The notes under the pieces were generated by a model. The model searched no databases. It was not told the origin of the DNA and saw only the letters and a list, made by a program, of their open reading frames with translations. A stretch of 64,000 nt of DNA from an uncultured Candidatus Saccharibacteria bacterium (GTDB lineage Bacteria; Patescibacteriota; Minisyncoccia; Phycocordibacterales; WO2-35-19): the NCBI GenBank assembly GCA_964534305.1, contig CAZHPR010000001.1:26944-90943 (forward strand), read 5' to 3'. The translations under genes were made by a program, and so were the position numbers. Of the stretch, positions 154 through 63,141 are shown in pieces. Every line of letters starts with the position of its first letter. Position 1 is the stretch's first letter.

Positions 154-3100
154 TTAGGCTACCATTTTCATAGGAGATTTTATATTTGAGACACCTTGGC
201 TGTGCTTCTCCATAACAAACCTACCAAGTCTCTTTGTGAAGTCTGCAACGTTCTCATTTTCATAAGGCTTTACATTGCCGTCTGTCATTTCGATAAGACC
301 CAAGAGTTGATCTCCGAATTCCTTATGCTTTGCTGATTTTGCAAGTTCGGAAACTACGTTTGGTGGCAACTTGGTATCAGCAGAATCATCTGTAAAGTAT
401 TTTATCACCTCATTCGCTGATAGTCCCTTCATTAATCCCCAGTCTTTTGTATTTGCTCCAATAACCTTACGTAGTCCAAGAAATCCCTCACTACCATAAG
501 CCCTCTGGATATCATTATTAAACGCTCTCTCTACTGCTGTATCCAAGCTTGAAAGGTCTCCTCCGTTATTTATGTTTCTTATCAAGTTATTTGTATCCCC
601 TCTCATTGTCCTGAGCGTATCAGGATTTATAATTCCCCTATTTGACGGCTCTACTATTTTTGAATCCCTCTCTAATTGTTCCAATCTCCCTCTCGCATTC
701 CTTATCTCATCTTCTAACACCTCCCTTTGAGGAAAAGCTCTATTATCTTGCAGTGAACCAGTTTTATTTCTAATCTCTTCTTCGATAAGTTTTTCTACTT
801 CACTTTGCAAACCATCAATCTTTTTCGATGTCCCTAGTACATCATCAATAACATCCACCCTACCACCAGGACCTGTATAATTATCTTTTACATAATTTAC
901 AGAATTTTTAAGCTCCAATATTTTATCTTCAAGAACCTTGATTCTATCAATGTCCACACCGAGTTCTCTTAGTTGGTTTATCTTTTCACTTATCCTGTCT
1001 ATTTTTTCTAAAGAACCACTCATAAAGGCGGCTCTCTCAGTTTCAGAAAAAATGCCTTTGTTTGATACAGGCGAATCTTCGATATCAGAAGATAGTGTTT
1101 TTGGTATTTCTGAAGGTTCTGGAGTCACTTTGTAAGAGTTTTCTATCTCTGTAGCTCTCTGTACCTCTTGGGCTTCTAGTTCAGGACTCATTCTCTCTGC
1201 TCTTGATATAACTTTTTCAAATTCAGCCTTGTCGTCAAAAGCCTCTGATAAATCAACTGGTTTGCCAACTTCAAGTTTTACACCATATTTAGGATCGGCT
1301 TCAAAGCCAAATTTCTCTGGAGAATTCAAAATCTTATTAGAATAGTAAGCCAATACGTTATTTTTCTGACCAACAGAAAGGGCAGCAAACCTTTCATTAT
1401 TCAAAAGAGCTTCTCTTGTAATGCCCCAAAGAGACCCCTCTTTTGGCACATTTTGCAACATAGCTTCTTTATAATTTGCACCGAACATTTCTTGCAAATC
1501 TACCGAGTCAGCATTTTCTGTAATCTCCGGCTTTACAGCTTCCACAGGTCTCATTTTTGGAACCTCAGTCGATTCTGAAGGAGCAGTTTTGGGTTTAACT
1601 AAATTTTCTGCAGCCCCTCCACCAGTTCCACTGTAGTAACTATTAAATAGTCCACCAGATACAGCACTGGTAATTCCTCCAGCAAGAGCGGCCATACCAA
1701 TCTTTTTAAGATTTAGATTTCTTAATCTTCTATCGAACTCTTTTTCCAGTTCTTCTATTCTTTTACTTTTTTCTTCAACAGAACCCTCCGAGTCTTTTAT
1801 TTTTTGTTCTTCTTGCGTTTTCCATTCTTGCAACTGCTCAGGCTTTAGTATTTTATTTGAAAGACCCATACCAAAACCGCTACCAACAAAAGCTCCAATA
1901 CCTCTTGCTAATCTATATCCTCCTGCACTAACGGCAGCCCCTAATGTGCCAGTCGGCGCCGCAAAAGCAACTCCAGCTGCAATAAGAGAAAATATGGTTG
2001 TATTTAAAGCAAATCTCTGGCCTCTAGTAAGGCCCGCATACCACTTCATACTCTTAGTACCGAGTAGACCTCTAAAACTCTCTTTGGCTTTGTCTAGAAT
2101 ATTTTCACCTCTTGCTGCTTTTATAGACGCATTATAGGAATCATTCTCAGATTTCAATACCTTATACAGCTCATCATCAAACTTAGATTTGACCAACTTT
2201 TCTTGCTCTGGTGTGAGAGGTCCATATACTTCACTTCCTCTTATCTCTGCCCCTATTTGTTTTAGGAGCTCTTCTTTTTTTGAATTATATTCATCTTTCA
2301 GAACAAAGAAACTTTTACCTGTTTTACCACTATAGTTGTGAGTTAGAGCATCCATCTCAGCAAGCTCTGACCTTATACTAGAAAGTTCCTGCAAAATTCT
2401 TTCCTTTTCAGGATTTTGGACTGCCTGCTCAACGTTATCAGCAACTTCTTCCACATTACCCAACTGAGTAGCCTCGGGGGACTCTTCCACACTTTCAACC
2501 TGCGGTTCAACAGCGGTTTTATCTTTCAAATATGGCAAAACTGTATTCCTAATAGCATTTAAAATATCTTCTCCTGTATTTAAAAAACCAACATCTAGGG
2601 TATTTGCTTCCTCCATATAAACAGGAAACACAACCTCCTCACCTTTTGTAATAATCTTAAAATTAGAGTCTTTTAGGATCCTCCTTTCATTTTCTTCTAA
2701 GTCTTGCAGGGCGCCGTCTATTTCCACCTTAAGATCATATTCTTCGGTAGACTTTTTTGGATCGTAATTGGATAAATCCACTCTTCCAAATTCAATCCCA
2801 TTGTTTTTTGGTTCCCTCAAGCCTTCCCGATCTTGATCCAACTGAGTAGACCCCAGTAATTCTCCCATGTTTTCAGCTTGCGGTTCAACAGCAGGCTTAT
2901 CCAAAATCGGATCTTCTTGAGACACACCCTCTTCTACAACAACATCTTGTTTTTCTTGAGGGGTGCTATTTTTAACTAATAATTTTTCCTCTTTTAAAAT
3001 TGGGATGACTGTATCCGTAACATATTGGTATATGTGTGTAGGCTCAGCATCAGCTCTTATTGTTAGCACCTTCTCAGATTCATCATAAACCGCAGAATTC

Positions 3101-3720
3101 ATCGCCCCCTCAACCAATCTTATTTTTATACCTTGAAAAAAATCTTTGATCTCTTTTTGAGTCTTCATTACTAAAGCCCTAAAAGCACGCGCGATATTGT
3201 CGTATGCTTTTATCTTTTCTTGCTCACTGAGATTTGTAAAATCCTCCCCTCTTATCAGCTCTATATTATTCCCAGTACTAGAAAAAACTCCTGCCAAATT
3301 TCTCACAGCACTAGCCAAACTAGTTGATTCTGGAGATACTGCGTTACTTAAGCTTACTACATCAAAACCCAATACAGGCTTTACTGGTCTCGGAACAGCA
3401 ACCTCACTTTGCTGAGTCCCACCAGGAATTTTGCTCTCTAGAGTTTCTGGTGCCTCTAAACCAATAGTATCTTGCGCTTGTTTAGCTTGTTTAGCTTGTT
3501 CTGCTCTTTCCAAAACTGTATTAGCCCACTTGCCTCTTTTGCTATGAGTTGTTTCTTTTTGATCAGGTACAACCTCGCCTTCATTCTCAGATATCCATTT
3601 CTTTTTATCACCAAGAGACCAGTTTTCAAAATTTTCTGGTCTTGAAGGTGTCTCATTACCATAGGTTTCTCCAAAATTAATCTCGCTAGTTGCCATGTTG
3701 AATTTAATTATAGAACACAA
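154..3720 (-). CDS. Giant hypothetical protein (1188 aa), acidic and coiled-coil rich, with internal repeats and two glycine-zipper-like hydrophobic segments
   Basis: Long uninterrupted ORF. Gly/Ala-rich hydrophobic stretches (AAGVAFAAPTGTLGAAVSAGGY...GAFVGSGFGMGL; GMAALAGGITSAVSGGLF) are flanked by Lys/Glu-rich coiled-coil-like sequence. No recognisable catalytic motif. Confidence 0.5.
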   Translation of the reverse strand: MCSIIKFNMATSEINFGETYGNETPSRPENFENWSLGDKKKWISENEGEVVPDQKETTHSKRGKWANTVLERAEQAKQAKQAQDTIGLEAPETLESKIPGGTQQSEVAVPRPVKPVLGFDVVSLSNAVSPESTSLASAVRNLAGVFSSTGNNIELIRGEDFTNLSEQEKIKAYDNIARAFRALVMKTQKEIKDFFQGIKIRLVEGAMNSAVYDESEKVLTIRADAEPTHIYQYVTDTVIPILKEEKLLVKNSTPQEKQDVVVEEGVSQEDPILDKPAVEPQAENMGELLGSTQLDQDREGLREPKNNGIEFGRVDLSNYDPKKSTEEYDLKVEIDGALQDLEENERRILKDSNFKIITKGEEVVFPVYMEEANTLDVGFLNTGEDILNAIRNTVLPYLKDKTAVEPQVESVEESPEATQLGNVEEVADNVEQAVQNPEKERILQELSSIRSELAEMDALTHNYSGKTGKSFFVLKDEYNSKKEELLKQIGAEIRGSEVYGPLTPEQEKLVKSKFDDELYKVLKSENDSYNASIKAARGENILDKAKESFRGLLGTKSMKWYAGLTRGQRFALNTTIFSLIAAGVAFAAPTGTLGAAVSAGGYRLARGIGAFVGSGFGMGLSNKILKPEQLQEWKTQEEQKIKDSEGSVEEKSKRIEELEKEFDRRLRNLNLKKIGMAALAGGITSAVSGGLFNSYYSGTGGGAAENLVKPKTAPSESTEVPKMRPVEAVKPEITENADSVDLQEMFGANYKEAMLQNVPKEGSLWGITREALLNNERFAALSVGQKNNVLAYYSNKILNSPEKFGFEADPKYGVKLEVGKPVDLSEAFDDKAEFEKVISRAERMSPELEAQEVQRATEIENSYKVTPEPSEIPKTLSSDIEDSPVSNKGIFSETERAAFMSGSLEKIDRISEKINQLRELGVDIDRIKVLEDKILELKNSVNYVKDNYTGPGGRVDVIDDVLGTSKKIDGLQSEVEKLIEEEIRNKTGSLQDNRAFPQREVLEDEIRNARGRLEQLERDSKIVEPSNRGIINPDTLRTMRGDTNNLIRNINNGGDLSSLDTAVERAFNNDIQRAYGSEGFLGLRKVIGANTKDWGLMKGLSANEVIKYFTDDSADTKLPPNVVSELAKSAKHKEFGDQLLGLIEMTDGNVKPYENENVADFTKRLGRFVMEKHSQGVSNIKSPMKMVA

Positions 3721-3896
3721 GACTAAAAGCGCAATTATAAATGTAGAAAGAGGTTCGCTTGACAGCCGAAACTCTCGGGTGTATAATGGTTCTAATACTG
3801 AATGATAGACACTCGCCTACCCGCGAGATTTTTCTTTTCAATTTTTGTATTATTTCGTATTAATTCGTTAATTTATTCATCTAATTTTCTAATAAA

Positions 3897-5051
3897 ATGT
3901 TTGATCTAAAGGTTATAAATTCGGTCCTTGCCCAATTAGAAGAGGAGCGAGGCATCGCCAGAGAAAAGGTCCTTGAGGCAATCGAGGCTGCTTTGGCAAC
4001 AGCTTACAAAAAGGAGTACGGCAAAAAAGGCCAGATAATAAAGGCAAAATTTGATCTAAACACTGGCGCAGTAGAGATGGAACAGGTAAAGATCGTGGTA
4101 GACGAGTCAAAGGTATTTATGGACAAAGAGTCTTACCAAGAGGCAATCCAAACCGCAGAAGAAACTGACGACGAGAGAGTATTGTTCAACCCAGAACACC
4201 ACATACTTTTGGAGGATGCCAAGAGAATAAAGAGAGACGCCGCAATAGGAGATGAAATCGTATTCCCTATTGAATCAAAAGGAGATTATGGCCGCATAGC
4301 ATCGCAGACAGCAAAGCAGGTTATTATGCAAAAAATAAGAGAAGCCGAGAGAGGTTCTGTACTCAAAGAATTTGGTGAGCGAGAAGGAGAAATAGTATCA
4401 GGAACAGTACAAAGAATAGAACGAGGCAATATATTTGTAGACGTTGGTAGAGCTGTCGGTATATTACCTTATGAAGAGCAGATCCCTGGAGAGAGATTTT
4501 CTCAAGGAGAAAGAGTTAGAGCTTATCTATACAAAGTGGAGGACGGCCCAAAGGGAGTCGCTCTGCGTCTATCTCGTTCTCATCCAAAATTCCTTGTAAA
4601 GCTTTTTGAAAACGAAGCTCCAGAACTTGCCGCTGGGACAATAGAGATAAGAGCTGTCGCAAGAGAGGCCGGCTCCAGGTCAAAGGTCGCCGTCTTTAGC
4701 AACGATACTTACATAGATCCAGTAGGATCTTTGGTTGGTCAGAGGGGCGTTAGGGTTGCAACAGTTACAAGCGAGCTTGGCGGAGAAAAGATCGATGTAA
4801 TAGAATGGTCCGACGATATAAAGACATTTATAGAAGACTCTCTCTCTCCTGCAAAGATAATATCTGTTGATATAGATGAAGAAAACAGACAGGCAAAGGT
4901 TGTTGTTTCTGAGGATCAGCAGTCTCTAGCTATCGGTAAAGGAGGCCAAAATGTTCGCCTTGCAGCAAAGCTTACCGGTTGGAGGATTGATATCAGCTCA
5001 ATAGCCGGCAAAGATCTTGGTAGCGCAGAAGGAGAGGTAGAATTATCCTAA
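3897..5051 (+). CDS. nusA: Transcription termination/antitermination factor NusA
   Basis: NusA N-terminal domain followed by S1 and tandem KH regions (…IGKGGQNVRLAAKLTGWRIDI…). Confidence 0.9.
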   Translation: MFDLKVINSVLAQLEEERGIAREKVLEAIEAALATAYKKEYGKKGQIIKAKFDLNTGAVEMEQVKIVVDESKVFMDKESYQEAIQTAEETDDERVLFNPEHHILLEDAKRIKRDAAIGDEIVFPIESKGDYGRIASQTAKQVIMQKIREAERGSVLKEFGEREGEIVSGTVQRIERGNIFVDVGRAVGILPYEEQIPGERFSQGERVRAYLYKVEDGPKGVALRLSRSHPKFLVKLFENEAPELAAGTIEIRAVAREAGSRSKVAVFSNDTYIDPVGSLVGQRGVRVATVTSELGGEKIDVIEWSDDIKTFIEDSLSPAKIISVDIDEENRQAKVVVSEDQQSLAIGKGGQNVRLAAKLTGWRIDISSIAGKDLGSAEGEVELS

Positions 5052-5144
5052 TTATTCTAATTAACCTAATCCCCAAAAATTGAATTTGAAAGATTAGTCA
5101 TTTTTTAGAATAATTAGAGAAATTATAAATTAGAATAATTTAAT

Positions 5145-5672
5145 ATGAACTTATGGCATGAAATAGATCCTGGCAATAAAGAGAGAATGACAGTTATTGT
5201 AGAAATCAACAAAGGATCAAAAAATAAATACGAAATAGACAAAAAGACGGGCCTAATCGCTCTGGACAGAGCTGCGCATACCGCTCAGGACTTCCCTTTT
5301 GACTATGGCTTTGTACCTCAGACACTCTGGCACGACAATGACCCTCTTGATGTGATCCTACTTACTACCTACCCATTACTACCTGGAGTAATGGTACACG
5401 CAAGACCGGTCGCTATTATGAATATGATTGATGGAGGCGACGCGGATGACAAAATAATCGCAGTACCATGTGAAGACCCGAGATGGGACGAGATAAAAGA
5501 TCTTTCTGATCTAAACAAGCATACACTCAAAGAAATAGAGCACTTCTATTCAACTTACAAAAAACTTCAGAACAAAGTAGTTGAGGTGCACGGGTTTAAA
5601 GGCAAGCAAGACGCCGAAAAAGCTTTTGAAGAGAGCCTTGAAATCTACAAAAAGAAGTACAAAAATGCTTAA
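5145..5672 (+). CDS. ppa: Inorganic pyrophosphatase
   Basis: Family I PPase motifs (…DPLDVIL…, DGGDADDKIIAV). Confidence 0.9.
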   Translation: MNLWHEIDPGNKERMTVIVEINKGSKNKYEIDKKTGLIALDRAAHTAQDFPFDYGFVPQTLWHDNDPLDVILLTTYPLLPGVMVHARPVAIMNMIDGGDADDKIIAVPCEDPRWDEIKDLSDLNKHTLKEIEHFYSTYKKLQNKVVEVHGFKGKQDAEKAFEESLEIYKKKYKNA

Positions 5673-5679
5673 ACACAAA

Positions 5680-5710
5680 AACCCCTTCCACAAAAAGGGG
5701 TTTTTGTTTT
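5680..5710 (+). terminator. Rho-independent terminator after ppa
   Basis: CCCCTTccacaaaAAGGGG hairpin followed by TTTTTGTTTT. Confidence 0.7.
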
Positions 5711-5781
5711 CTATATTAGTAGTACAATTCTAGTTGTACGGTTATGATCTTTAGAAATTAATTATTAAAAAAATAAATAAA

Positions 5782-6501
5782 ATGAAAAACTCAAAATTAA
5801 AAATAATTTCAGCTATGGTGCTAGGTGCGTTGATGCTACCGATTGTCTCTAGCGCACAGACAACCACTCCGGTAAAAAACAGAGAGGAAGTAAAGGCTCA
5901 AATAGAGCAGAGGAAGCAGGAGATGGAAGAAAAAAGAGAAGAATTAAAAAACGAGTTTGAACTAAAAAAACAAGAATTTGAGGCGAAGAGAGAACAGATA
6001 AAGCAGGAGATGGAACTAAAAAAGGAGGAGATAAAACAAAAGGTAGAAGAGAGAAAGCAGTTAGTAGATAGCAAAATAGAAGAAAGGCTGTCAAACTTCG
6101 TAGAGAAACTTGAAAAAAGATTTAATTCTGCGATAGAAAGATTGGAAGTATTGGTAACTAGGATAGAGTCTAGAATAGCAAAGATGGATGAAGAAGATAT
6201 AGACACAACAAAGGCTAAGGGATTGCTGGCTGAAGCCAAGACAAAAATAGCAACCGCAAAGACAAGTGTAGCCGCAATAAGCACAAAAGCAGACGAGGTA
6301 CTTGCGGGAGATACAAAAGCTCTATACCCAGAGCTTAAGGAAGCAGTAGAAAAGGCAAAAAATGATATAAAAGAGGCTCATGCTGCTCTAGTAAAGGTAG
6401 TGAGTGAGCTAAAACCTGGATTCTATAAGAGTCGAGATGGTAAAATGTCTACCACCACCCCTTCAACATCAACAACCACTGCTACGACAACATCAAATTA
6501 A
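5782..6501 (+). CDS. Secreted coiled-coil protein with a Thr-rich C-terminus (hypothetical)
   Basis: N-terminal signal peptide (MKNSKLKIISAMVLGALMLPIVSSAQ), heptad-like K/E repeats, C-terminal TTTPSTSTTTATTTSN. Confidence 0.5.
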   Translation: MKNSKLKIISAMVLGALMLPIVSSAQTTTPVKNREEVKAQIEQRKQEMEEKREELKNEFELKKQEFEAKREQIKQEMELKKEEIKQKVEERKQLVDSKIEERLSNFVEKLEKRFNSAIERLEVLVTRIESRIAKMDEEDIDTTKAKGLLAEAKTKIATAKTSVAAISTKADEVLAGDTKALYPELKEAVEKAKNDIKEAHAALVKVVSELKPGFYKSRDGKMSTTTPSTSTTTATTTSN

Positions 6502-7986: not shown

Positions 7987-8679
7987 GGCGGCGATGGCGG
8001 CGGTTTCGGCGCGCAAAACAAGAGAACCCAGAGAATACACTTGGGCTTCTTTTTGTTTAAATAGATCTAACTCCTTTGGAGACCAGCCACCTTCAGGCCC
8101 GATGAATAAGTTTACAGACTCCAGATTATAGTTTTCAGTTCCCCTCTTCTTTGCAAGGAGAGGGGTTAGGGGTGAGGTAGAAGAAGGCTCCAATATAATC
8201 ACCCCTCCTTCTGTTTCCTCAATACTATCTGCTAACTGCTTAATGCTATTTATCTCCGGTACATCAGCTCTGCCGCACTGCTCGCTTGCCTCTATCGCAA
8301 TCCTCTTTGCTCTTTCAAGGTTAAAACCTTTTTTCTCACTTCTTTCTGAAAGGATTGGAATTATTTTTGAGACCCCAAGTTCTGTCGCCTTTTCTATCAC
8401 CAGCTCAAGGTTATCTTTTTTTATCAAAGAAATATAAAGACTAATTTTATTTTTAGGGACCACTCCCCCTCTCTCTTCTAAGAGTCTCACCCAAGCTTCT
8501 CGATTGTTTATTGTTTCTATAACGTATAGGTATTCGCTCCCCCTACCGTCAAAGAGGACAACCTCGCTCCCAACATTGTATCTAAAGACACTTCTCCACT
8601 GGTGCATCAAATCTCTATCCTGCAACAGGGTCCTATCGCTACCTAAATCCTTTTTTATATAAAACCTATGTAGTCGCAT
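7966..8679 (-). CDS. rsmE: 16S rRNA (uracil1498-N3)-methyltransferase RsmE carrying a 15-aa in-frame repeat-element insertion
   Basis: RsmE family motifs (…LFIGPEGGWSPKE…, N-terminal PUA-like domain). The STSPLTPLLAKKRGT segment is encoded by the palindromic element at 8139-8183. Confidence 0.8.
   Translation of the reverse strand: MRLHRFYIKKDLGSDRTLLQDRDLMHQWRSVFRYNVGSEVVLFDGRGSEYLYVIETINNREAWVRLLEERGGVVPKNKISLYISLIKKDNLELVIEKATELGVSKIIPILSERSEKKGFNLERAKRIAIEASEQCGRADVPEINSIKQLADSIEETEGGVIILEPSSTSPLTPLLAKKRGTENYNLESVNLFIGPEGGWSPKELDLFKQKEAQVYSLGSLVLRAETAAIAALSLLVL
8139..8183. repeat. G+C-rich palindromic element (solo copy) inserted in frame within rsmE
   Basis: GTTCCCCTCTTCTTTGCAAGGAGAGGGGTTAGGGGTGAGGTAGAA. 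The same 45-bp unit is also at 11931-11975. Confidence 0.85.
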
Positions 8680-11739: not shown

Positions 11740-11779
11740 CCCTCCCCTGATCAAGGGGAGGGTTGGGTGGGGTTATTCC
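11740..11779. repeat. Palindromic element variant (solo copy) directly after the stop codon of the MBL ribonuclease gene
   Basis: CCCTCCCCTGATCAAGGGGAGGGTTGGGTGGGGTTATTCC. The hairpin loop resembles the 17609 element and the tail resembles the main family. Confidence 0.7.
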
Positions 11780-11788
11780 AAGATGGGG

Positions 11789-13237
11789 TTAATCCAAAAA
11801 GTATTCCTTACCGGGTTCGGGATAAATTGCTTCTATATCTAAGTACTCACGGATGCGTTGAGAGAGAAAGAGCGAAGAACGCGGTTCACCCATGATAGTA
11901 AAAACTTTTTTGAGAGAGTGTTGTTGTGTGGTTCCCCTCTCCTTTGCAAGGAGAGGGGTTAGGGGTGAGGTAGAACCTTCCGAAGCCTCCTCGACAAACT
12001 CCACCAAATTATCAGAATCTTTGTGTGAAGAGTAACCCTTTATTGTCTCTATCTTTGCTCTTACTTTTATTTTTTGACCATTTATCTTGACCTCACTCTT
12101 GCCGTCCTCAAGAGCCCGGCCCAAGCTACCCAGAGTTTGATACCCAACAAGGAGGAGGGTGTTTTTGTGATCGTCCAAAATATCAGCTTCATGAGCCAAA
12201 ACCCTCCCCCCTTCAGACATACCAGAGCCAGCAATTATTATCTTCGGGCCACCTTTTTTTATAACAGACTTACTTTCTTCAAAACCGTCTACAATATTGA
12301 GGCCAGGAAAATCAAATATGTTATCGCCCCTTTTTATCTCTTCTTGTACTTCCTTTTTAAAATCAGTTGCGTATTTTTTATAGATGTTTGTTACTTTTAT
12401 AGCCAGTGGAGAATCAAGATAGACAGGGACTTTCTCTATCTCCCCATCTTCTATCATGTTGTTTAGTTCGTACAGCATTACCTGAGTCCTTTCTATAGAA
12501 AAAGCTGGTATAACAATGGTTCCACCCCTCTTTATCCCCTCTTGGATCACCCCCTTAAACCTCTCTCTTCTTTCTTCTTTACTCTCATGATTTCTATCTC
12601 CATAAACACTCTCCATAACAATATAATTTGCTCCTTCTGGAATTTCTGTATCCGGTAATAATGGCGAAGGAGAATTGCCCAAATCTCCTGTAAAGGAAAT
12701 CTTGCGTACTTCATTCAAATCGAAAGATCCATAAGAAATATTTATTATGGCAGAACCGAGTATATGGCCAGCATTTTGCATATCTATCTTTATATCTTTA
12801 CCTAGGTTTATTGTTTGATTGTAATCGCAACCCTCCCACAAAGACATCGTTTTTTCTATATCCTTCTCTTCATAGAGATTTTTGTCGCGATGCCTAGACC
12901 TAAAAACTTTAAGAGCATCTAGGAGCATTGGCCTTGCAAGCTCCAGGGTTTCCTTTGTTGAAATTATTTTTCCACCAAAGCCCTCTCTCACAAGCTTTGG
13001 TATTTTGCCAATATGATCCATATGAGCATGAGTCACCAGTAGAAAATCAAAAGAAGACGGGTCGTATTTGAATGGCTCAAAGTTTTTTAGTTCATCATTG
13101 AAACTACCCTGGAGCAGACCACAATCAACCATAATCTTTGTACCAGCATAAAGAAATTCTATGTTTGCACCGGTTGCGGTCCCTACCCCACCCCAAAAAA
13201 TTAGTTTTGCATTTTTATCTTTATTTTGTTGACTCAT
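11789..13237 (-). CDS. MBL-fold beta-CASP ribonuclease (RNase J / CPSF-like) carrying a 15-aa in-frame repeat-element insertion
   Basis: HxHxDH motif (VTHAHMDHIG) and a beta-CASP-like central region. The C-terminal segment STSPLTPLLAKERGT is encoded by the element at 11931-11975. Confidence 0.7.
   Translation of the reverse strand: MSQQNKDKNAKLIFWGGVGTATGANIEFLYAGTKIMVDCGLLQGSFNDELKNFEPFKYDPSSFDFLLVTHAHMDHIGKIPKLVREGFGGKIISTKETLELARPMLLDALKVFRSRHRDKNLYEEKDIEKTMSLWEGCDYNQTINLGKDIKIDMQNAGHILGSAIINISYGSFDLNEVRKISFTGDLGNSPSPLLPDTEIPEGANYIVMESVYGDRNHESKEERRERFKGVIQEGIKRGGTIVIPAFSIERTQVMLYELNNMIEDGEIEKVPVYLDSPLAIKVTNIYKKYATDFKKEVQEEIKRGDNIFDFPGLNIVDGFEESKSVIKKGGPKIIIAGSGMSEGGRVLAHEADILDDHKNTLLLVGYQTLGSLGRALEDGKSEVKINGQKIKVRAKIETIKGYSSHKDSDNLVEFVEEASEGSTSPLTPLLAKERGTTQQHSLKKVFTIMGEPRSSLFLSQRIREYLDIEAIYPEPGKEYFLD
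11931..11975. repeat. G+C-rich palindromic element (solo copy) inserted in frame within the MBL ribonuclease gene
   Basis: GTTCCCCTCTCCTTTGCAAGGAGAGGGGTTAGGGGTGAGGTAGAA. Confidence 0.85.
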
Positions 13238-15296: not shown

Positions 15297-15641
15297 CTAC
15301 AAAGCACGTATAAACCCCGCTAGCATTTTTGATATATCCACCGATAATAGATACATTCTATCGTAATCTACCTTAGAAATATAACCCAACTCAAGTCCTA
15401 ATTGCAACATAGAACGTACTTCACCACACGATCCTTTGGAAATGTATAGAAACCTGGACAGTTCTTTATTACCCTTTCTTTCAAATCCCTCTGCAATATT
15501 ATTCATCACGGAAACAGCAGCTCTCTGTATTTGGTCTCTAAAACCATAATCCTTACTACTAGAAAAAATCTTATACGTAATGACACTCAATTCTTTTGCT
15601 TTCTGCCAAGCTTTTATTTCTTCAAAAGATTTGATCGTCAT
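15297..15641 (-). CDS. Four-helix-bundle protein (23S rRNA intervening-sequence protein family)
   Basis: Characteristic …NIAEGF.R…EL.RFL.IS.GSC.E… signature. Confidence 0.8.
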   Translation of the reverse strand: MTIKSFEEIKAWQKAKELSVITYKIFSSSKDYGFRDQIQRAAVSVMNNIAEGFERKGNKELSRFLYISKGSCGEVRSMLQLGLELGYISKVDYDRMYLLSVDISKMLAGFIRAL

Positions 15642-15657
15642 ACAATTTTATAGTTTT

Positions 15658-16362
15658 CTAATCTTCATTTCTCACCGCAATAAATACTTTTGGTTCTGTA
15701 TCTATGATTGCATCTCGGATTTCTGGAAACTTATCACCTCTCTGAATCTTTTCTGATAATTCAACGATATCTCCATCGTAGGGATAAACAAATGCATCAC
15801 AAGAAAAATCACCCATGGGCACACGAGTTGTTTGTTCTGGAAGTTCCTCAATTATGTAATCAGCGAGTCTAAAAATCTCACTTTCCGAAAATGTTCTCGG
15901 ACTAGTTTCTTTTGTGATTGCTTTCTTAACAATTGATTGTAGGTAACTCTTAAATTCCTCATTTTTATGGTAGAAATCATATAAGAATTTGACCTTTAAT
16001 TTGAAAGTGTTATTGGCAATTACACTCCATTTAACATAATGGATTCTGGATATTTCCTCTGGAGAAAAAGTCTTCTCAACTTCTTGCCTAACTTGTTCTA
16101 GCAAATCTGTTCCTAACTGCTCGGCCATTTGTAAGGCTTTCTCATATTTAATTCTTTTTCTGACCTCAAGGTTTATTGCATGAATAGAATCTGCAACATA
16201 CACAATTACGTTTTCACGAGTATACAAAAGAGACCACCGAATTAACTCTATTATATTTTCTACTGTAAACCATTTATTACCAAGACTAATACCGACACCG
16301 ATGTTGTATTTCTTGGCTTCTAAATCTTCTACTGTTCCTCCTCTAATTTTATACAGCTGCAT
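15658..16362 (-). CDS. Candidate tRNA-dependent cyclodipeptide synthase (CDPS, AlbC-like)
   Basis: Size is about 234 aa. Motifs line up with the AlbC family: IGVGISLGNKWFT matches IGISAGNSYFS, VIVYVADSIHA matches VVYVDTHID, DYIIEELP matches NYVLAEAP (catalytic Tyr/Glu), and VYPY matches CYH. This comparison is from memory of the family, not a database search. Confidence 0.5.
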   Translation of the reverse strand: MQLYKIRGGTVEDLEAKKYNIGVGISLGNKWFTVENIIELIRWSLLYTRENVIVYVADSIHAINLEVRKRIKYEKALQMAEQLGTDLLEQVRQEVEKTFSPEEISRIHYVKWSVIANNTFKLKVKFLYDFYHKNEEFKSYLQSIVKKAITKETSPRTFSESEIFRLADYIIEELPEQTTRVPMGDFSCDAFVYPYDGDIVELSEKIQRGDKFPEIRDAIIDTEPKVFIAVRNED

Positions 16363-16373
16363 ACATCCACGTA

Positions 16374-17150
16374 CTATTTAGTCAAAATTATTATTTTCCC
16401 ATCATAACCGACGGCGACGGTGTGCTCGAAGTGAGCAGAGAGAGATTTGTCTGCCGTTCGATAGGTATAACCATCAGAGAGCTTTTTTATTTCACGGCTG
16501 CCGAGAGAAAACATCGGCTCGATCGCAATCACAAGCCCCGGACGAAGCTCTGGTCCTTCTCCTCTCTTGGCCCGATTAGGAACAAAAGGTTCTTCATGCA
16601 CACTGTAGCCGACCCCGTGGCCCGAGAGACCTTCTACAACCCCAAAACCATGCCTTATCGCAACTTCCATAACAGCAGCTCCAATATCACCTATATGTCC
16701 CCCGACTCTCATCGCCGCAATCCCTTTGTTTAAAGCTTCTTTGGTTGCACTCACAAGCTCCTCTGATTTTTTATCAACCCTGCCGACAGGCACAGTAATT
16801 GCCGCATCTGTTATAAGGCCCTTGTAAGTAAGGCCGAGATCAAGGGTCACAATATCTCCTTCAAAAAGGATCTTGCCCCCTCCCTCGTTTGGTATCCCGT
16901 GTACAATCTCTTCATTGATGGAGACACAAAGAGAAGCTGGATAAGGTCTCTTTGCATCCATTGGTTGATAACCAAAAAATGATGCGACTCCCCCAGCCTC
17001 GTCTATGAGCTTTTCGGCGTAAGCATTTAGTTCATCTGTTTTGACACCAGGGAACACCTTCTTTGCAACCTCACGCAAAATACGAGCATGGATCGCTCCA
17101 CCCTCTTTCATAATTTCTATTTCTTCTTCTGTTTTGTATCTGATACCCAT
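16374..17150 (-). CDS. map: Methionine aminopeptidase type I
   Basis: MetAP metal-ligand motifs (…HGIPN…, …FEHTVAV…). Confidence 0.9.
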   Translation of the reverse strand: MGIRYKTEEEIEIMKEGGAIHARILREVAKKVFPGVKTDELNAYAEKLIDEAGGVASFFGYQPMDAKRPYPASLCVSINEEIVHGIPNEGGGKILFEGDIVTLDLGLTYKGLITDAAITVPVGRVDKKSEELVSATKEALNKGIAAMRVGGHIGDIGAAVMEVAIRHGFGVVEGLSGHGVGYSVHEEPFVPNRAKRGEGPELRPGLVIAIEPMFSLGSREIKKLSDGYTYRTADKSLSAHFEHTVAVGYDGKIIILTK

Positions 17151-17199
17151 TGGGCTAAATATAGCATTATTATTTTATTTATAAACCCCCTCCGGCTTA

Positions 17200-17635
17200 A
17201 AGCCACCTCCCCCTTAATCAGGGGGAGGAAACACCCCACCCATCACAAATTATTTCTTATTTTTAAAATTACTTCCTCCACCCCATTATCAATCTCTTTA
17301 TTCCAAAACCTTAAAGTCTTATACCCCAAGTCTTCCATAAACAACTGTCTTACCCTGTCATACTCTTTATTTTGATTGTGAATTTCTCCGTCAATTTCGA
17401 TAACTAATTTTTTCTCTGGACAAAAGAAATCAACTACATAACCTCCAATACTATGCTGTCTCCTAAATTTCACCCCCAACTGACTACGTCTCAAATACCA
17501 CCAAATTTTATTCTCTTGCGGAGTTGGGTTTCTTCTAAGTTCCTTTCTATGCTCCCGGAGGCTGTATAGATTATGCAACTTCTTCATAACGATAAGTAGC
17601 AGTTTTTTCTTTCCCCTGATTAAGGGGAAAGTGGC
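17200..17635. mobile_element. Small cassette of one DUF559 endonuclease gene flanked by about 30-bp inverted repeats, inserted between adk and map
   Basis: Left arm AAGCCACCTCCCCCTTAATCAGGGGGAGGAAA (17200-17231). Right arm TTTCTTTCCCCTGATTAAGGGGAAAGTGGCC (17605-17635) is its imperfect reverse complement. Confidence 0.55.
17243..17587 (-). CDS. DUF559 (Vsr-like, PD-(D/E)xK) endonuclease-domain protein
   Basis: …ENKIWWYLRRSQLGVKFRRQHSIGGYVVDFFCPEKKLVIEIDG…LRFWN… The ORF-track start at 17638 reads through the right inverted repeat. The Met at 17587 is the more likely start. Confidence 0.8.
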   Translation of the reverse strand: MKKLHNLYSLREHRKELRRNPTPQENKIWWYLRRSQLGVKFRRQHSIGGYVVDFFCPEKKLVIEIDGEIHNQNKEYDRVRQLFMEDLGYKTLRFWNKEIDNGVEEVILKIRNNL

Positions 17636-17652
17636 CAAAGGCCGATAGGGGT

Positions 17653-18243
17653 TTACAGGTTTATTTTTTCTAATATCTCCCTATGCACATCTTCTATTGG
17701 TTGTTCACCATTTATTTCTACAAATTTGTAGTAAGGATTTGATTTAAAATGTTCTAGCGCAGGCTTTACACTCTTTTCGTACCATTCCATTCTTCTTTTT
17801 ATCTCTTCTGATTTATCATCCACCCTCCCCCTCTCCTCAAGCCTTTCAGTTGCCCATTCTGGGGAAACAAGAATTGAGATTATAGTAGGATTCTCTCTCT
17901 TATAAAACTGGAGCGCCGTATCCAAGATCCAAGCCTCATGCACCTTCCTTGATATACCATCTATTACCAAATGCTCACTCCCCGTCATATTATCAACAAA
18001 GAATTGTGACCAAAGCCATATCGGAAGAAATTCTGGCATAAGCCCGCCCGAATCAATAACCTCCTTGGTTTTCTTTGCAGAAAAAGAATCCTGTTTTGCA
18101 AATTCTCGTAGTTTGCCTCCAGTTTCTAGGTACAAAACTTTCTTTTCTGGATCAACTTGCTCTAACTTTTCTATAAGCAATTTTGCCTGTGTACCCTTAC
18201 CAGAACCAGAAGGACCAAAAAATATAAATGTTTGAGGATTCAT
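17653..18243 (-). CDS. adk: Adenylate kinase
   Basis: P-loop GPSGSGKGTQ. Confidence 0.9.
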   Translation of the reverse strand: MNPQTFIFFGPSGSGKGTQAKLLIEKLEQVDPEKKVLYLETGGKLREFAKQDSFSAKKTKEVIDSGGLMPEFLPIWLWSQFFVDNMTGSEHLVIDGISRKVHEAWILDTALQFYKRENPTIISILVSPEWATERLEERGRVDDKSEEIKRRMEWYEKSVKPALEHFKSNPYYKFVEINGEQPIEDVHREILEKINL

Positions 18244-18338: not shown

Positions 18339-19610
18339 CTAGTATTCCCTAGCAGAAATCTGAGCGTCCAATTTTTTGAGTAGATCAATGACGACTGAAA
18401 CAACGATCAAGAGACCAGTTCCACCGATGGCCACAGCGTTAATACCGGTGAGCGCTTGTATCACAAGCGGCAAGACAGCAATAAGTCCCAAGAAGAGCGC
18501 CCCGATAAGAGTCAGTCTAAAAAGTATTTTAGCAATATGAGAAGACGTAGAAGGCCCTGGTCTTACACCGGGTATAAAGGCACCACTTCTTTGCAAATTC
18601 TTCGATATAGAATCTGGATCAAATGTAACAGCCGTATAGAAATAAGTGAATACAAACACCAACAGGAAGTAAGCTATCGCATAAAATAGCTGATCAGAAA
18701 GGAAAGACAGTATAGATGAAGAGACCTTTTGTATCAGAGCGTTACTAGAGTTTGCCAAGAATCTTACAATCATTTGTGGGAAAAGTAGGATAGAAAGAGC
18801 AAAGATTATCGGCATCACACCAGCCTGATTTACACGTAGTGGCAAGTATGTTGATACTCCACCATAAACCTTGTTACCCCTTACCTGCTTTGCATAGGTA
18901 ACTGGTATCGGCCTCTCTGCCTCTGTTATAACAACCACACCCCAGATAACCAAAACCGCAGCCGCAATAAATCCAAGATAAGAAGGGAGCATCGAGACAT
19001 CAAACGAAAGGAGTAGCCTACTAACAGCAGACGGTAGCGCAGAGACTATACCAGCAAATATGATGAGCGAAACACCGTTACCGATACCAAACTCAGTTAT
19101 AAGCTCTCCAAGCCACATAAGAAGAAGTGAACCGGCTGATATTACTATTAGGTTTGTAGCAAGTTCAAAAGTAGAAAGTCTTGCAAGTATTCCCTGGTTC
19201 TGAAGAAGGACTATAAAGCTGAAGCCCTGTATCAGAGCAAGTGGTACGGTGAGCAATCTTGAGTACTGAGTAAACTTCCTTCTACCAACCTCCCCGTCTT
19301 CTTGATACATCTCTTTTAGTCTTGGGAACATAACGGTAAGCAGCTGCATTATGATTGAAGCAGTAATATAAGGAGAAACACCGAGCATTATTATGGAAAG
19401 ATTTGATAAGCCACCTCCAGAAAATATGTTTAGCAGACCGAAGAAATCATTACCAGATATAAACTGTTCTAGACGGATTGGATCAATGCCTGGTATAGGT
19501 ATAACAGCCATAACACGAAAGATAGCAAGAACAACCAGAGTAAAGATTATTCTGTTTCTCAAAACACTATCCCCCCAAACGAGCTTTATTTTGTGAAAGA
19601 AAGAATTCAT
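18339..19610 (-). CDS. secY: Preprotein translocase subunit SecY
   Basis: Ten TM helices, SecY signature, and position after rplO. Confidence 0.9.
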   Translation of the reverse strand: MNSFFHKIKLVWGDSVLRNRIIFTLVVLAIFRVMAVIPIPGIDPIRLEQFISGNDFFGLLNIFSGGGLSNLSIIMLGVSPYITASIIMQLLTVMFPRLKEMYQEDGEVGRRKFTQYSRLLTVPLALIQGFSFIVLLQNQGILARLSTFELATNLIVISAGSLLLMWLGELITEFGIGNGVSLIIFAGIVSALPSAVSRLLLSFDVSMLPSYLGFIAAAVLVIWGVVVITEAERPIPVTYAKQVRGNKVYGGVSTYLPLRVNQAGVMPIIFALSILLFPQMIVRFLANSSNALIQKVSSSILSFLSDQLFYAIAYFLLVFVFTYFYTAVTFDPDSISKNLQRSGAFIPGVRPGPSTSSHIAKILFRLTLIGALFLGLIAVLPLVIQALTGINAVAIGGTGLLIVVSVVIDLLKKLDAQISAREY

Positions 19611-29755: not shown

Positions 29756-29830
29756 ACCGCCCTTAGCTCAGTTGGTTAGAGCACAGAGCTTATACCTCTG
29801 GGGTCCTAGGTTCGAATCCTAGAGGGCGGA
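29756..29830 (+). tRNA. tRNA with anticodon UAU (tRNA-Ile2-type, AUA-reading)
   Basis: Manual fold: acceptor CCGCCCT/AGGGCGG, D-arm GCTC…GAGC, anticodon stem CAGAG/CTCTG with loop CTTATAC, T-arm CTAGG-TTCGAAT-CCTAG. No encoded CCA. Confidence 0.7.
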
Positions 29831-29870
29831 CAAGCGTTAGAAAAAACTCAAATACTTGTGACGACAAACA

Positions 29871-43090: not shown

Positions 43091-43140
43091 CCTCCCCTCT
43101 CCTCTTGCAAGGAGAGGGGTTGGGGGTGAGGTAGATTATT
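43091..43140. repeat. Palindromic element (solo copy) abutting or overlapping the fusA stop codon
   Basis: CCTCCCCTCTCCTCTTGCAAGGAGAGGGGTTGGGGGTGAGGTAGATTATT. Confidence 0.8.
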
Positions 43141-45904: not shown

Positions 45905-45950
45905 TTCCTCCCCTCTCTTAGATTAAGAGAGGGTTAGGGTGAGTTATTTT
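45905..45950. repeat. Palindromic element (solo copy) filling the rpsL-rpsG intergenic spacer
   Basis: CCTCCCCTCTCTTAGATTAAGAGAGGGTTAGGGTGAGTTATTTTTA. Confidence 0.8.
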
Positions 45951-47383: not shown

Positions 47384-47428
47384 CCCCCTCTCTTAATTTA
47401 AGAGAGGGGTTAGGGGTGAGTTATTTTT
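47384..47428. repeat. Palindromic element (solo copy) that encodes the last 5 codons and the stop codon of the ComEC MBL-domain gene
   Basis: CCCCCTCTCTTAATTTAAGAGAGGGGTTAGGGGTGAGTTATTTTT. Confidence 0.85.
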
Positions 47429-54983: not shown

Positions 54984-55063
54984 ACTTTATATTTTAGCAG
55001 ATTAATAACTCACCCCCTATCCCCCTCTCTTACAACAAGAGAGGGGGGACCAAAAAATACAAT

Positions 55064-55624
55064 CTATTTCTGATTAAAATACTCTGGAATCTCATTTGCT
55101 TTAATAATAATCCTGTTTGGGAACATATTTCGTAGCTCATCCACCAAGGGATAAAATTTTGTGTTAACCACTAAAGATCCTACATTAATTTTAAACAAAC
55201 CTGTTTCGTCTGGTCTTTGTGGTTTTCCACCTGGAAATGGGTTGTCTTTTTCTAAAACAACTAAAAAATTACACTGGGTCATAAATCCTCCAAACATACC
55301 GCCTAATTTTCCAACGTCTCCTTTTATTCCACCATTTGAAAGAATGTTCAGAGCTGCTGTTACCCATTCAAGGTCTCTACCCCTAGTAATTCCGTGTGCC
55401 AAATAATTATTTAAAACTTCTGTTGGTATATCTCTCAGATAATAGTCAATGGCATTTTGATACCTTTCGGTTGCAAAAGGAGGATTCCATCCGTTTACAT
55501 CTTGATTAGCTTGAGCTGTTATTTCGGCATCGTATTTTTCAAGTAGCTCCTGAGCCACTTTCTCAGATTCCCCAAAAGGGACGAATTCTTGTTTTGGTTG
55601 TGGGTTTTGTGGTTGATTTTCCAT
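55064..55624 (-). CDS. Hypothetical protein (cargo gene of the cassette)
   Basis: ORF only. Gly-rich central segment. No family assignment. Confidence 0.4.
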   Translation of the reverse strand: MENQPQNPQPKQEFVPFGESEKVAQELLEKYDAEITAQANQDVNGWNPPFATERYQNAIDYYLRDIPTEVLNNYLAHGITRGRDLEWVTAALNILSNGGIKGDVGKLGGMFGGFMTQCNFLVVLEKDNPFPGGKPQRPDETGLFKINVGSLVVNTKFYPLVDELRNMFPNRIIIKANEIPEYFNQK

Positions 55625-55647
55625 ATTATCCAGGCCGCTAATTATTC

Positions 55648-55998
55648 TTATAATTTTAATTCTGTACTTCTTCTGATATTTTCTAAAACTTTATCCAAGT
55701 TGTTTAAAATATCATTATTCCAAAATCTTATAGTTCTTATATCTTTATCTTTTAAAAAGTCCTCGCGTTCTTGGTCGTATTCTACAGCACTTTTATGTTG
55801 TTCACCATCTAGTTCTATCGCAAGTCTTTTTTCTGCACAAAAGAAATCTAGTATATACGGGCCTGCACTATATTGTCTTAAAAATTTTAAATTGTTTACT
55901 TGTCTGTTCCTAATTTTTGACCAAAGGAGTCTTTCTGCTTCAGTTTGATTTGACCTGAGTTCACGTCGTCGCTCTAGTTGGTTTTGGTCGTTATACAT
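55648..55998 (-). CDS. DUF559 (Vsr-like) endonuclease-domain protein
   Basis: …EAERLLWSKIRNRQVNNLKFLRQYSAGPYILDFFCAEKRLAIELDGEQH…IRFWNN… Start set at the ATG at 55998; the ORF-track TTG start reads into the repeat. Confidence 0.85.
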   Translation of the reverse strand: MYNDQNQLERRRELRSNQTEAERLLWSKIRNRQVNNLKFLRQYSAGPYILDFFCAEKRLAIELDGEQHKSAVEYDQEREDFLKDKDIRTIRFWNNDILNNLDKVLENIRRSTELKL

Positions 55999-56171
55999 AT
56001 TTGTATGATTCCGGTTTCCCCCTTGTTGTAAGGGGTGAGAATGCGCAGTATTCGCAAGACTTTTTGAGATATTTTTATGCAATTAAAATATCCAAAAAGT
56101 GTACAGTCCTTGTAAGGGATTAGGGGGGTTATTCCCCCTATCTTGTTGTAAGAGAGGGGTTAGGGGGTGAG

Positions 56172-56939
56172 TTATTTTACATCCACACTTTTCAAAATTT
56201 CTGGAAACTCTTCTTTTTTTAGTGAAGCATGACCAACAAGAAATCCTTCTACATTACCGTAGTCTATTATGGCTCTAGCATTCGGGGCCTCAACAGCAGC
56301 TCCATAGAGGATACGCACAGAAGAAGCAATATCTTTACCAAACAATTCACCCAAAGATTTTCTGATAAAAAGGACTGTCTCGTGTATATCAGTTGGACTC
56401 ATTGCTTCTCTATAAGATTTTCCTATCGTCCAGACCGGCTCATAGGCGATAATAAGTCCCAACATATATTTCTTTTGTAAGCCGGAGATAGAATTTTTAA
56501 GTTGTTCTTTTAAGAACTCGAGATGACTTCCTTCTCTATCTCTAACACTTTCCCCGATACACAGGATTGGAGTAAGACCAGCTTCAAACACTGACTCTAA
56601 TTTTTTGTTTATTATTTTATTATCCTCACCCATTGCCCTCCTCTCAGAGTGCCCGACCAAAACAAACCTAACTCCCAAATCTTTGAGCATTTGATTGCTC
56701 ACTTCCCCAGTAAAGGCGCCCTTTTCTTCAAAATACGAGTTTTGTGCTGTAATAAATAGATTTTTAGGTCTGCTTATTTTTGACAACAGCCCAAGATACA
56801 CAAAAGGAGGAGCGACCAAAACCTCTGTATTTTTGAGTACTGAGGCGGTCTTTTTTGTAAAATTAAATATACTTTTTGCTTCTTCAAGAGAACTCGGGTT
56901 CATCTTCCAATTTGCTATAACTATATTTTTCTTTTTCAT
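56172..56939 (-). CDS. tpiA: Triosephosphate isomerase
   Basis: …IANWKMN… and …VGHSERR… motifs. Its stop codon lies inside the right inverted repeat. Confidence 0.9.
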   Translation of the reverse strand: MKKKNIVIANWKMNPSSLEEAKSIFNFTKKTASVLKNTEVLVAPPFVYLGLLSKISRPKNLFITAQNSYFEEKGAFTGEVSNQMLKDLGVRFVLVGHSERRAMGEDNKIINKKLESVFEAGLTPILCIGESVRDREGSHLEFLKEQLKNSISGLQKKYMLGLIIAYEPVWTIGKSYREAMSPTDIHETVLFIRKSLGELFGKDIASSVRILYGAAVEAPNARAIIDYGNVEGFLVGHASLKKEEFPEILKSVDVK

Positions 56940-62117: not shown

Positions 62118-62235
62118 AAATAGAAAATTAATTTTCTATTTAATTATATCAGTATAAAAAAATTTTTTTATAGAATATGTAAATAACTCACCCCCTGCCC
62201 CCTCTCTTACAACAAGAGAGGGGGTAAGAAAAAAA

Positions 62236-62610: not shown

Positions 62611-62614
62611 ATTT

Positions 62615-62968: not shown

Positions 62969-63141
62969 ATTTGTATGATTCCGGTTTCCCCCTTGTTGTA
63001 AGGGGTGAGAATGCGCAGTATTCGCAAGACTTTTTGAGATATTTTTATGCAATTAAAATATCCAAAAAGTGTACAGTCCTTGTAAGGGATTAGGGGGGTT
63101 ATTCCCCCTATCTTGTTGTAAGAGAGGGGTTAGGGGGTGAG

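Follow-up and report, generated by a model that had tools for sequence, protein, structure and literature searches.

A DUF559 nuclease gene between inverted triplex-type repeats: a candidate mobile cassette inserted behind adk in a Candidatus Saccharibacteria genome

BoxC/PIT/TM repeats have been known since the 1990s, and DUF559 is, to our knowledge, a very large protein family with solved structures and no assigned role. Here we describe an element that combines the two: a DUF559 nuclease gene bracketed by inverted repeats of the BoxC/PIT/TM type, inserted between adk and map in a 64,000-nt stretch of DNA from an uncultured Candidatus Saccharibacteria bacterium (assembly GCA_964534305.1, contig CAZHPR010000001.1, positions 26,944 to 90,943). 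The whole stretch is hereafter called the window, and its own coordinates are used throughout. The literature on the repeats is said to go back to Bachellier in the 1990s and to Hoyne and Maher in 2000. As presented in Holder 2015 (PMC4666352), BoxC, the PIT element and TMECO of Escherichia coli are one and the same, with the consensus CCCTCNCCC-N3-6-GGGNGAGGG-N3-GGGNGAGGG, which folds into an intrastrand triplex in vitro and marks loci that are prone to rearrangement; the same paper reports that no function, origin or mobility gene had been found for these repeats and that mobility functions were never found near triplex motifs. The repeats of the window share with them the block order (C-rich, short loop, G-rich, loop, second G-rich) and the occurrence as dispersed intergenic copies, sometimes in inverted pairs. 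They differ in that they bracket, and move with, a nuclease gene, and in that some copies lie in-frame within genes.

Another system close in organisation, though not one to which the element belongs, is that of the repetitive extragenic palindromes (REP/REPIN) and their associated tyrosine transposases (RAYT, or TnpA-REP). In both cases a short structured repeat stands in inverted copies on either side of a lone nuclease gene, solo or doublet copies are dispersed mostly just after genes, and the repeat sequence varies with the gene. RAYTs, however, are HUH/Y1 enzymes whose genes usually occur once per genome and are passed on vertically; DUF559, by contrast, is a Vsr-like PD-(D/E)XK nuclease, here with three copies in 64 kb, a polymorphic insertion and cargo genes. 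REPs consist of a GTAG/CGTC head and a hairpin, and lack the third block of the triplex type.

The window, which comes from a Patescibacteria (Paceibacteria-like) genome, has a G+C content of 39.6%. The element is situated in the tail of the ribosomal-protein operon, where the minus-strand gene order is secY (18339-19610), adk (17653-18243), the DUF559 gene (17243-17587) and map, coding for methionine aminopeptidase (16374-17150). The DUF559 gene starts with ATG, spans 345 bp including the stop codon and encodes a Vsr-like PD-(D/E)XK endonuclease of 114 aa. The whole inserted cassette, also read on the minus strand (17157-17652), comprises a 5' triplex-motif arm, the gene, a 3' triplex-motif arm and an A+T-rich tail (17157-17184). 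Its left end lies directly against the TAA stop codon of adk (17653-17655). At the other end, the likeness to a related cassette in another genome (L018) runs about 30 nt beyond the arm and ceases near 17157, and an identical Logan contig (L100) terminates at exactly the same base (...TATTTAG). From these two ends we derive a length of about 496 bp; the element probably extends some 30 nt past the downstream arm into a promoter-like tail, which is alignable in part with the tail of the L018 cassette. A sigma-70-like match directed toward map (TTTATA-16-TATATT, 17185 to 17158, minus strand) falls in this tail; in a consensus scan, promoter matches around the element were no more numerous than in shuffled sequences. 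Judged by this consensus match, a promoter in the tail may sustain the expression of map and offset the break in the operon.

The adk protein was used to scan for relatives, one genome per species, and 16 related loci were obtained. The closest of those found, L002 (86%, 79% and 80% identity in adk, map and secY, respectively), has the junction adk-TAA-AACAAAACTT-ATG-map, i.e., a 10-nt spacer, with ndk directly after map. The adk-map gap does not exceed ~60 nt in 12 of the 16 relatives and is 100-140 nt in L004 and L011, while L005 and L006 have different insertions at this place; DUF559 occurs between adk and map in none of the 16. The site being empty in L002 and DUF559 being found at this position in no relative, we conclude that the cassette is an insertion. 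This agrees with a preliminary description of the locus, made from the sequence alone, which had proposed that a cassette consisting of one DUF559 gene and inverted repeats of its own had entered the normally contiguous adk-map pair, and had named conservation of DUF559 at this site in relatives as the observation that would speak against it. Two independent Logan contigs (SRR13355621 and SRR13355622) carry the identical adk-DUF559-map sequence, which excludes an assembly artefact. A further record, P0002, first considered a near-identical copy elsewhere, proved to be the same locus from a sister sample.

That the gene and its arms form one unit follows from L018, where a DUF559 gene 66% identical to that of the window stands beside a PKD-domain gene, with both arms alignable, i.e., the gene and both arms recur in an unrelated context. 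The operon tail as a whole appears, from the sequences compared, to be a recurrent landing site whose junctions are generally used: toxin-antitoxin, NYN-domain or HicAB-like genes occupy operon-tail junctions in relatives, and the secY-adk spacer harbours a gene-less inverted pair of three-part arms in L004 (2620-2950) and a solo motif in L003 (2935-2976). Between map and ndk, the window contains two genes, one resembling a cyclodipeptide synthase (15658-16362; Pfam CDPS, 7e-9) and one for a 23S-rRNA-intervening-sequence protein (15297-15641). Since map directly precedes ndk in L002, these two genes (15297-16362) also look inserted; no triplex motifs flank the pair.

The arms of the element deserve a detailed account. 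As an inverted repeat they span 17182-17231 and 17606-17655 on either side of the DUF559 gene (50 nt, 78% complementary), and their score of 56, under one scoring scheme, compares with a maximum of 42 at 114 shifted control positions in related loci. The two hairpins quoted in the preliminary description, CCTCCCCCTTAATCAGGGGGAGG at 17206-17228 and CTTTCCCCTGATTAAGGGGAAAG at 17609-17631, are present as given and make up the inner portion of this inverted repeat, and their loops are reverse complements of each other. Motifs were identified with a finder built on explicit block rules; MAFFT cannot align the variable second loop. A class II triplex motif consists of a pyrimidine (Y) block, a complementary purine (R) block and a third block mirroring the purine one, each of 6-15 nt and all on one strand, with the triads of the purine motif (G·G:C, A·A:T and T·A:T). 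Published loop limits are 1-6 nt (ITxF) and 0-10 nt (Hoyne), and the second loop of TMECO measures 3 nt.

On the G-rich strand, both arms show a Y block, a 5-nt loop, a purine block, a 12-nt second loop with a 4-bp hairpin, and a third block. In the upstream (5') arm (17609-17652, G-rich on the plus strand) these are CTTTCCCCT (17609-17617), GATTA, AGGGGAAAG (17623-17631), the mini-hairpin loop TGGCCAAAGGCC (17632-17643) and the third block GATAGGGGT (17644-17652). In the downstream (3') arm (17185-17228, G-rich on the minus strand), the hairpin at 17206-17228 contains the Y and R blocks CCTCCCCCT and AGGGGGAGG, followed by the mini-hairpin loop TGGCTTTAAGCC (17194-17205) and the third block GGAGGGGGT (17185-17193). 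The third block mirrors the purine block at 9/9 triads in each arm, against 5/9 (upstream) and 7/9 (downstream) in the wrong-side control, and in both arms it faces outward and marks the end of the element. The arms differ from each other at positions 2 and 4 of the Y block, and the R and third blocks change to match; within a single element, all three blocks thus covary. Since the third block mirrors the purine half, we regard the arms as BoxC/PIT/TM-type triplex motifs and not as simple hairpins, and the G-rich strand can therefore be predicted to fold back twice, forming a purine-motif intrastrand triplex. Single-stranded DNA folding returned two adjacent hairpins for each arm, with z-scores of -3.5 (upstream) and -4.15 (downstream) relative to shuffles; the programs used model hairpins only.

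Tested against the published motif, both arms have the expected block order and a first loop of fitting length (5 nt), whereas the second loop (12 nt) is longer than the short-loop rule allows. Among related loci, the length of this loop is bimodal, either 3 nt or 12-24 nt. On sequence grounds, the arms are thus best classed as a BoxC/PIT/TM variant with an enlarged second loop and a predicted triplex fold. The preliminary description had assigned these repeats to a second sequence family; the arm sequences do differ from those of the other repeats in the window, in which the second loop is TTA, as in E. coli type A, in place of the 12-nt mini-hairpin, but the architecture is common to all, and both 'families' are versions of one triplex motif. 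Across all loci, a mirror block was found on the 3' side of the hairpin in 194 of 493 hairpin-strand instances, compared with 21 on the 5' side and 50 when the purine block was shuffled; shuffled loci yielded no motifs at all.

These features bear on another view of the arms, namely that they are ordinary terminators, messenger RNA stabilisers or insulators flanking a horizontally acquired gene. They are indeed G+C-rich stem-loops, intergenic, and positioned right after stop codons. However, no T-tract follows them, the terminator scan called nothing at either arm, and the sense strand past the hairpins is A-rich or G-rich; an RNA hairpin, moreover, would not need the conserved mirrored third block. 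PIT elements had no terminator or promoter activity in the work of Maher's group, as cited in Holder 2015 (PMC4666352), from which we also take that purine-motif triplexes are impossible in RNA. The latter suggests a role of the triplex motif at the DNA level. Other copies of the motif are situated between rpsL and rpsG or in-frame within coding sequences (see below). We consider the terminator explanation, which the preliminary description had itself named as a challenge to its proposal, very improbable. Scanned with Rfam at gathering scores, the window contains only a transfer-messenger RNA and two tRNAs as known RNA families; a tRNA-Ile gene with anticodon TAT is located at 29757-29831. In a permissive Rfam scan of the element, a sub-threshold Clostridiales-2 RNA match appeared at 17185-17255 on the minus strand (22.6 bits against 58.6 required) and was rejected, its structure being mismatched. 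The Clostridiales-2 consensus has an AGGAGG ... GAAGGGAA pattern around a hairpin, as in the element region, and on account of this pattern that family may itself be a repeat of the triplex-motif kind.

The block-rule finder located 12 triplex motifs in the window: the arms of three cassettes and six solo copies. All 12 purine/pyrimidine hairpins have a mirror third block on one side, mostly over its full length (9/9 to 11/11); a further hairpin at 36505 has none. The preliminary description had counted the adk-map element as the third DUF559-plus-repeat unit within 64 kb, and the two others were found at 55004-56176 and 62182-63146, each bounded by inverted repeats. Cassette A (55004-56176, minus strand) lies between tpiA and pgk, with triplex-motif ends (TAACTCACCCCC and hairpin), and contains a DUF559 gene (55648-55998) and a 186-aa open reading frame (ORF) that matches no family (55064-55624). 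Cassette B (62182-63146, minus strand), with the same type of ends, has a DUF559 gene at 62615-62968 and a VOC/glyoxalase gene at 62236-62610. In both, DUF559 is next to the 5' arm and the second gene differs; the arms measure 44-49 nt with 92-93% identity, and the two DUF559 proteins are ~45% identical in amino acids to that of the adk-map element. A total of 465 bp is 100% identical between the cassettes (55712-56176 and 62682-63146), and the identity breaks off precisely at the outer block; the latter overlaps the TAA stop codon of the upstream gene. At their other ends, A and B share 91% identity over 54 nt; neither the flanks nor the cargo of one are related to those of the other. The pair bears, to judge from these alignments, the signature of very recent copying in this genome.

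The three cassettes also allow us to weigh the idea that the arms are recombination sites of an invertible switch that turns the DUF559 gene on and off. A whole gene between 50-nt inverted repeats would suit such a switch, and in one survey DUF559 genes were over-represented among the targets predicted for programmed inversion (odds ratio 14; PMC9881135). Against this, we noticed no recombinase gene beside the three cassettes, the arms of the adk-map element are just 78% identical, and the gene is co-directional with its neighbours in all three cassettes and on both independent contigs. Of all the explanations considered, we find this one the hardest to credit.

Among the solo copies, the one nearest in sequence to the adk-map arms is at 11740-11773 on the plus strand (CCCTCCCCT GATCA AGGGGAGGG TT GGGTGGGGT; third block 9/9). 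Others are located just past the fusA stop codon (43094-43132), in the spacer between rpsL and rpsG (45911-45946), two genes that are normally co-transcribed, and at the 3' end of a metallo-beta-lactamase gene (47385-47423), the stop codon of which is the TTA loop of the motif. The remaining two are in-frame within the genes for RsmE (8141-8179) and a beta-CASP RNase (11934-11972), where both encode TSPLTPLLAK[KE]RG; alignments of the two proteins to solved homologues gap or stop at these sites. In this respect the motifs resemble Rickettsia palindromic elements (RPEs) in coding sequences, and the terminal inverted repeats flanked by TA recall RPEs and miniature inverted-repeat transposable elements (MITEs), such as Correia elements. 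These, however, encode nothing, rely on unidentified or DDE transposases, and have neither a third block of the triplex type nor a linked Vsr-like nuclease. With its 50-nt arms, the adk-map element has the terminal inverted repeats typical of insertion sequences and MITEs, and no transposase of the DDE, HUH or serine/tyrosine type was found inside it; in particular, the enclosed protein gave no Y1_Tnp (HUH/Y1) match.

The protein itself matches Pfam PF04480 with E=5e-34 (116.9 bits against a cut-off of 20.6) over profile positions 4-107 of 109, and is thus, apart from a short N-terminal segment, essentially a DUF559 domain throughout. The family-invariant residues D53, E64, D66 and H70 are present. 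The family profile matched the Neisseria gonorrhoeae structure 3hrl (2e-24) and, over 77 residues, the catalytic domain of the homing endonuclease I-Bth0305I (3r3p; E=4.6e-4), and domain-level matches to phage homing-endonuclease families were also obtained. The match to Vsr itself (TIGR00632) remained at 17.3 bits, far below the cut-off of 97.85; no dcm-type methyltransferase gene was noticed beside DUF559, although this received no dedicated test. Membership in a defence system was rejected, PADLOC returning only weak domain-level matches (DpdF and a methyl-directed restriction enzyme). Viral contigs gave 22 weak matches, mostly to partial domains.

The resemblance to I-Bth0305I and to the phage families speaks for another rival: DUF559 may be a free-standing homing endonuclease for which pre-existing repeats, or inverted TM doublets, are targets and not the ends of an element, the gene being brought in when a double-strand break is repaired from a filled copy with the repeat serving as homology, and the arms being the split landing pad. 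With the EDxHD, or Vsr-like, homing endonucleases (I-Bth0305I and the 'fractured genes' of Dassa 2009 and Taylor 2011) it shares a related catalytic domain and the selfish lodging of nuclease genes inside conserved genes or operons. The genes of those enzymes are housed in group I introns or between the halves of split inteins, and the enzymes possess an extra DNA-binding domain at the N-terminus, which is missing here; the gene in the window is intergenic (adk-map), and Rfam detected no intron, so that the location typical of EDxHD genes is not that of this one. We know of no report of flanking triplex repeats for EDxHD homing endonucleases. In favour of homing, gene-less inverted pairs do exist, in the secY-adk spacer of L004 and as a doublet in L030, Holder 2015 (PMC4666352) lists five inverted TM pairs in E. 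coli, and arms within one element match each other better than they match those of other elements. On the other hand, the L002 adk-map junction, with its 10-nt spacer, carries no repeat, so that no landing pad is visible at this site, and the same ends occur on cassettes with different cargo. On balance, we find homing an unlikely account of the locus, if one that merits attention.

The association of repeat and nuclease was then followed in 80 loci, which came from scanning metagenomes with aligned sequences of close relatives of DUF559. Of the 56 stand-alone DUF559 loci with enough flank, 45% reached an inverted-repeat score of at least 36 when their own two flanks were compared; at shifted positions this fraction was 0.9%, and for mismatched pairs of flanks it was 8.5%. 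In many of the remaining loci, the partner arm lay farther out, 300-530 nt past the stop codon, and the intervening DNA contained a cargo gene that varied between loci (e.g., an aminoglycoside-2''-adenylyltransferase-like enzyme or a helix-turn-helix protein). Over 97 related loci, the motif was 12 times denser within 250 nt of DUF559 (1.44 per kb) than elsewhere (0.119 per kb); at least one motif was nearby in 52 of 70 stand-alone DUF559 genes, with third blocks mostly facing outward, as in the window. Protein and repeat similarity showed a positive but weak correlation (rho 0.22), which does not separate co-inheritance from co-evolution.

In nine loci, the entire motif-DUF559-motif cassette is located in-frame in leuS, just ahead of the editing domain (L051, at 3053-6412 with a 1119-aa ORF, L055, L070, L072, L074, L076, L084, L095 and L098). 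Extra in-frame solo motifs in the leuS loci encode SPLLGRGAGGEA-like peptides, and the three motif blocks of the leuS cassettes co-vary from locus to locus. This insertion may explain the label 'leucyl-tRNA synthetase' on some stand-alone DUF559 proteins.

Beyond the phylum, the only annotated DUF559 gene of E. coli K-12 is ycjD, and a canonical BoxC/TMECO copy (10/10) lies 170 nt downstream of it. The ycjD locus (NC_000913.3, 1351030-1351830; L099) also shows a partial hairpin at the stop codon and a duplicated fragment of the ycjD 3' end; a perfect 17-bp hairpin is found just upstream of the start codon. In 5,426 E. coli genomes, the median copy number of the ycjD-adjacent repeat is 19; its sequence is identical to that of TMECO entries 19 and 22 in Table 1 of Holder 2015 (PMC4666352). 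YcjD and the N. gonorrhoeae protein of structure 3hrl have the same full-length domain as the window protein, and triplex motifs are located beside the gene in both genomes. The window protein, however, stays below the YcjD equivalog cut-off (NF007294; 91.1 bits against 218), i.e., the domain is common to both and the orthologous group is different. Openly searchable papers contain neither a role nor a link to repeats for YcjD or 3hrl.

Among eight diverse tblastn hits, six had a motif 0-200 nt from DUF559 (N. gonorrhoeae, Photobacterium, Sphingomonas, Deinococcus, Synechocystis and Pseudanabaena), and the signal was weak in Picosynechococcus. On a Sphingomonas plasmid (NZ_CP155753.1; L134, 19942-20390), DUF559 has motifs on both sides and separates sufB from sufC, a further case of one gene lodged in a conserved operon. 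The inverted arms of the Pseudanabaena gene are 90 nt long. In 40-kb windows of these diverse taxa, motif density was 1.53 per kb near DUF559 and 0.25 per kb elsewhere, the latter value being dominated by two large arrays. Tandem arrays of 6-19 motifs in alternating orientation occur in Photobacterium (L132, 20370-21920 and 38806-39904) and N. gonorrhoeae (L131, 10804-13041 and 20499-21161), and in each of these genomes one array begins beside DUF559. As far as these genomes indicate, the association of repeat and DUF559 is strong and not exclusive.

The E. coli arrangement, a single ycjD and ~20 repeats, resembles a domesticated gene and lends some weight to the view that DUF559 is a host nuclease for maintenance or repair, attending to damage or stalled replication where triplex-forming repeats lie, or is regulated by them; gene and repeat would then share a location through regulation or local seeding of repeats, the gene having come by ordinary horizontal transfer or recombination without any mobilisation. 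Vsr-family enzymes are repair nickases, the leuS-embedded copies appear long-lived, and in Caulobacter a DUF559 protein acts like a repair enzyme of the Vsr type (PMC12907096). Such a role fits poorly with three DUF559 copies in 64 kb, with 465 bp that are 100% identical at two sites and end exactly at the repeat, with a polymorphic insertion in a ribosomal-protein operon, with variable cargo within the same ends, or with a score of 17 bits against the Vsr-model cut-off of 97.85. We therefore judge a purely domestic role to be decidedly unlikely.

The explanation we favour, with a probability of roughly 55%, is that the element is a mobile cassette whose nuclease works on its repeat ends in the manner of REP-RAYT. 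Many genomes contain the same unit, with or without cargo, at sites that are unrelated to one another, and also within genes; the DUF559 nuclease is the one gene constant among the units, and solo derivatives exist. The action of DUF559 on the repeats and the route of movement are what we infer from the analysis. A small mobile cassette would have inserted right after the adk stop codon; its DUF559 nuclease would recognise the folded or distorted repeat and nick or cut at the repeat ends, at or near the outer block, and host repair or replication would then copy or move the cassette. Single repeats could spread as non-autonomous derivatives or remain as footprints.

Several observations count against this explanation. 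A nuclease of 114 aa has no evident strand-transfer activity, and the 12-nt second loop is beyond the limits by which PIT/TM motifs are defined. No consistent direct repeat was found that would indicate a target-site duplication, the sequence past the third block being merely A/T-rich; TA or TAA abuts the examined cassette and solo ends of the window and may belong to the repeat itself. In L002, the 10 nt between adk and map at the empty site are too diverged for alignment with the filled site. An empty-site allele did not turn up in either source sample, the exact adk protein occurring on two contigs only, both filled; for the exact map protein, no record was found. A motif within 250 nt is missing for 18 of the 70 DUF559 genes. 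Most metagenome loci have no extra solo copies of their arms within +/-4 kb, and with so few found near other cassettes, dispersed solos are not a universal feature. The sample across phyla is small (nine taxa selected from tblastn hits), the Azospirillum locus lacks a motif beside DUF559, and the second large array in both Photobacterium and N. gonorrhoeae has no DUF559 nearby.

The mobile cassette could be one case of something wider: DUF559 proteins would be the missing enzymes of BoxC/PIT/TM repeats throughout Bacteria, Vsr-like nickases that recognise the purine-motif triplex or the hairpin in its folded state and in this way spread the repeats and TM-DUF559-TM cassettes. This generalisation is put forward tentatively, its chances being in our estimate somewhat short of even. 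If it is true, DUF559 and the triplex repeats would constitute a second, independent repeat-plus-nuclease system alongside REP-RAYT, with nuclease-spread cassettes that carry cargo genes or lie in-frame in essential genes such as leuS, and it would explain why triplex-motif loci are rearrangement hot spots in E. coli.

Both the kind of repeat and the protein family had been described before; the novelty, as it appears, lies in their coupling, physical as well as evolutionary, and in the cassette as a mobile unit. No paper linking DUF559 to BoxC/PIT/TM repeats was found in the open full-text literature, subscription-only work being outside our reach, so that priority is uncertain. The element connects two long-standing unknowns, in that a nuclease is bracketed by the repeats, moves with them and adjoins them from Patescibacteria to E. 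coli, and it raises the testable hypothesis that YcjD/DUF559 proteins cut triplex motifs. If this holds, the routes by which miniature mobile DNA spreads would come to include a new class of enzyme and a non-B DNA structure. Genome annotation of candidate-phyla bacteria is also affected, as such cassettes break core operons and even coding sequences.

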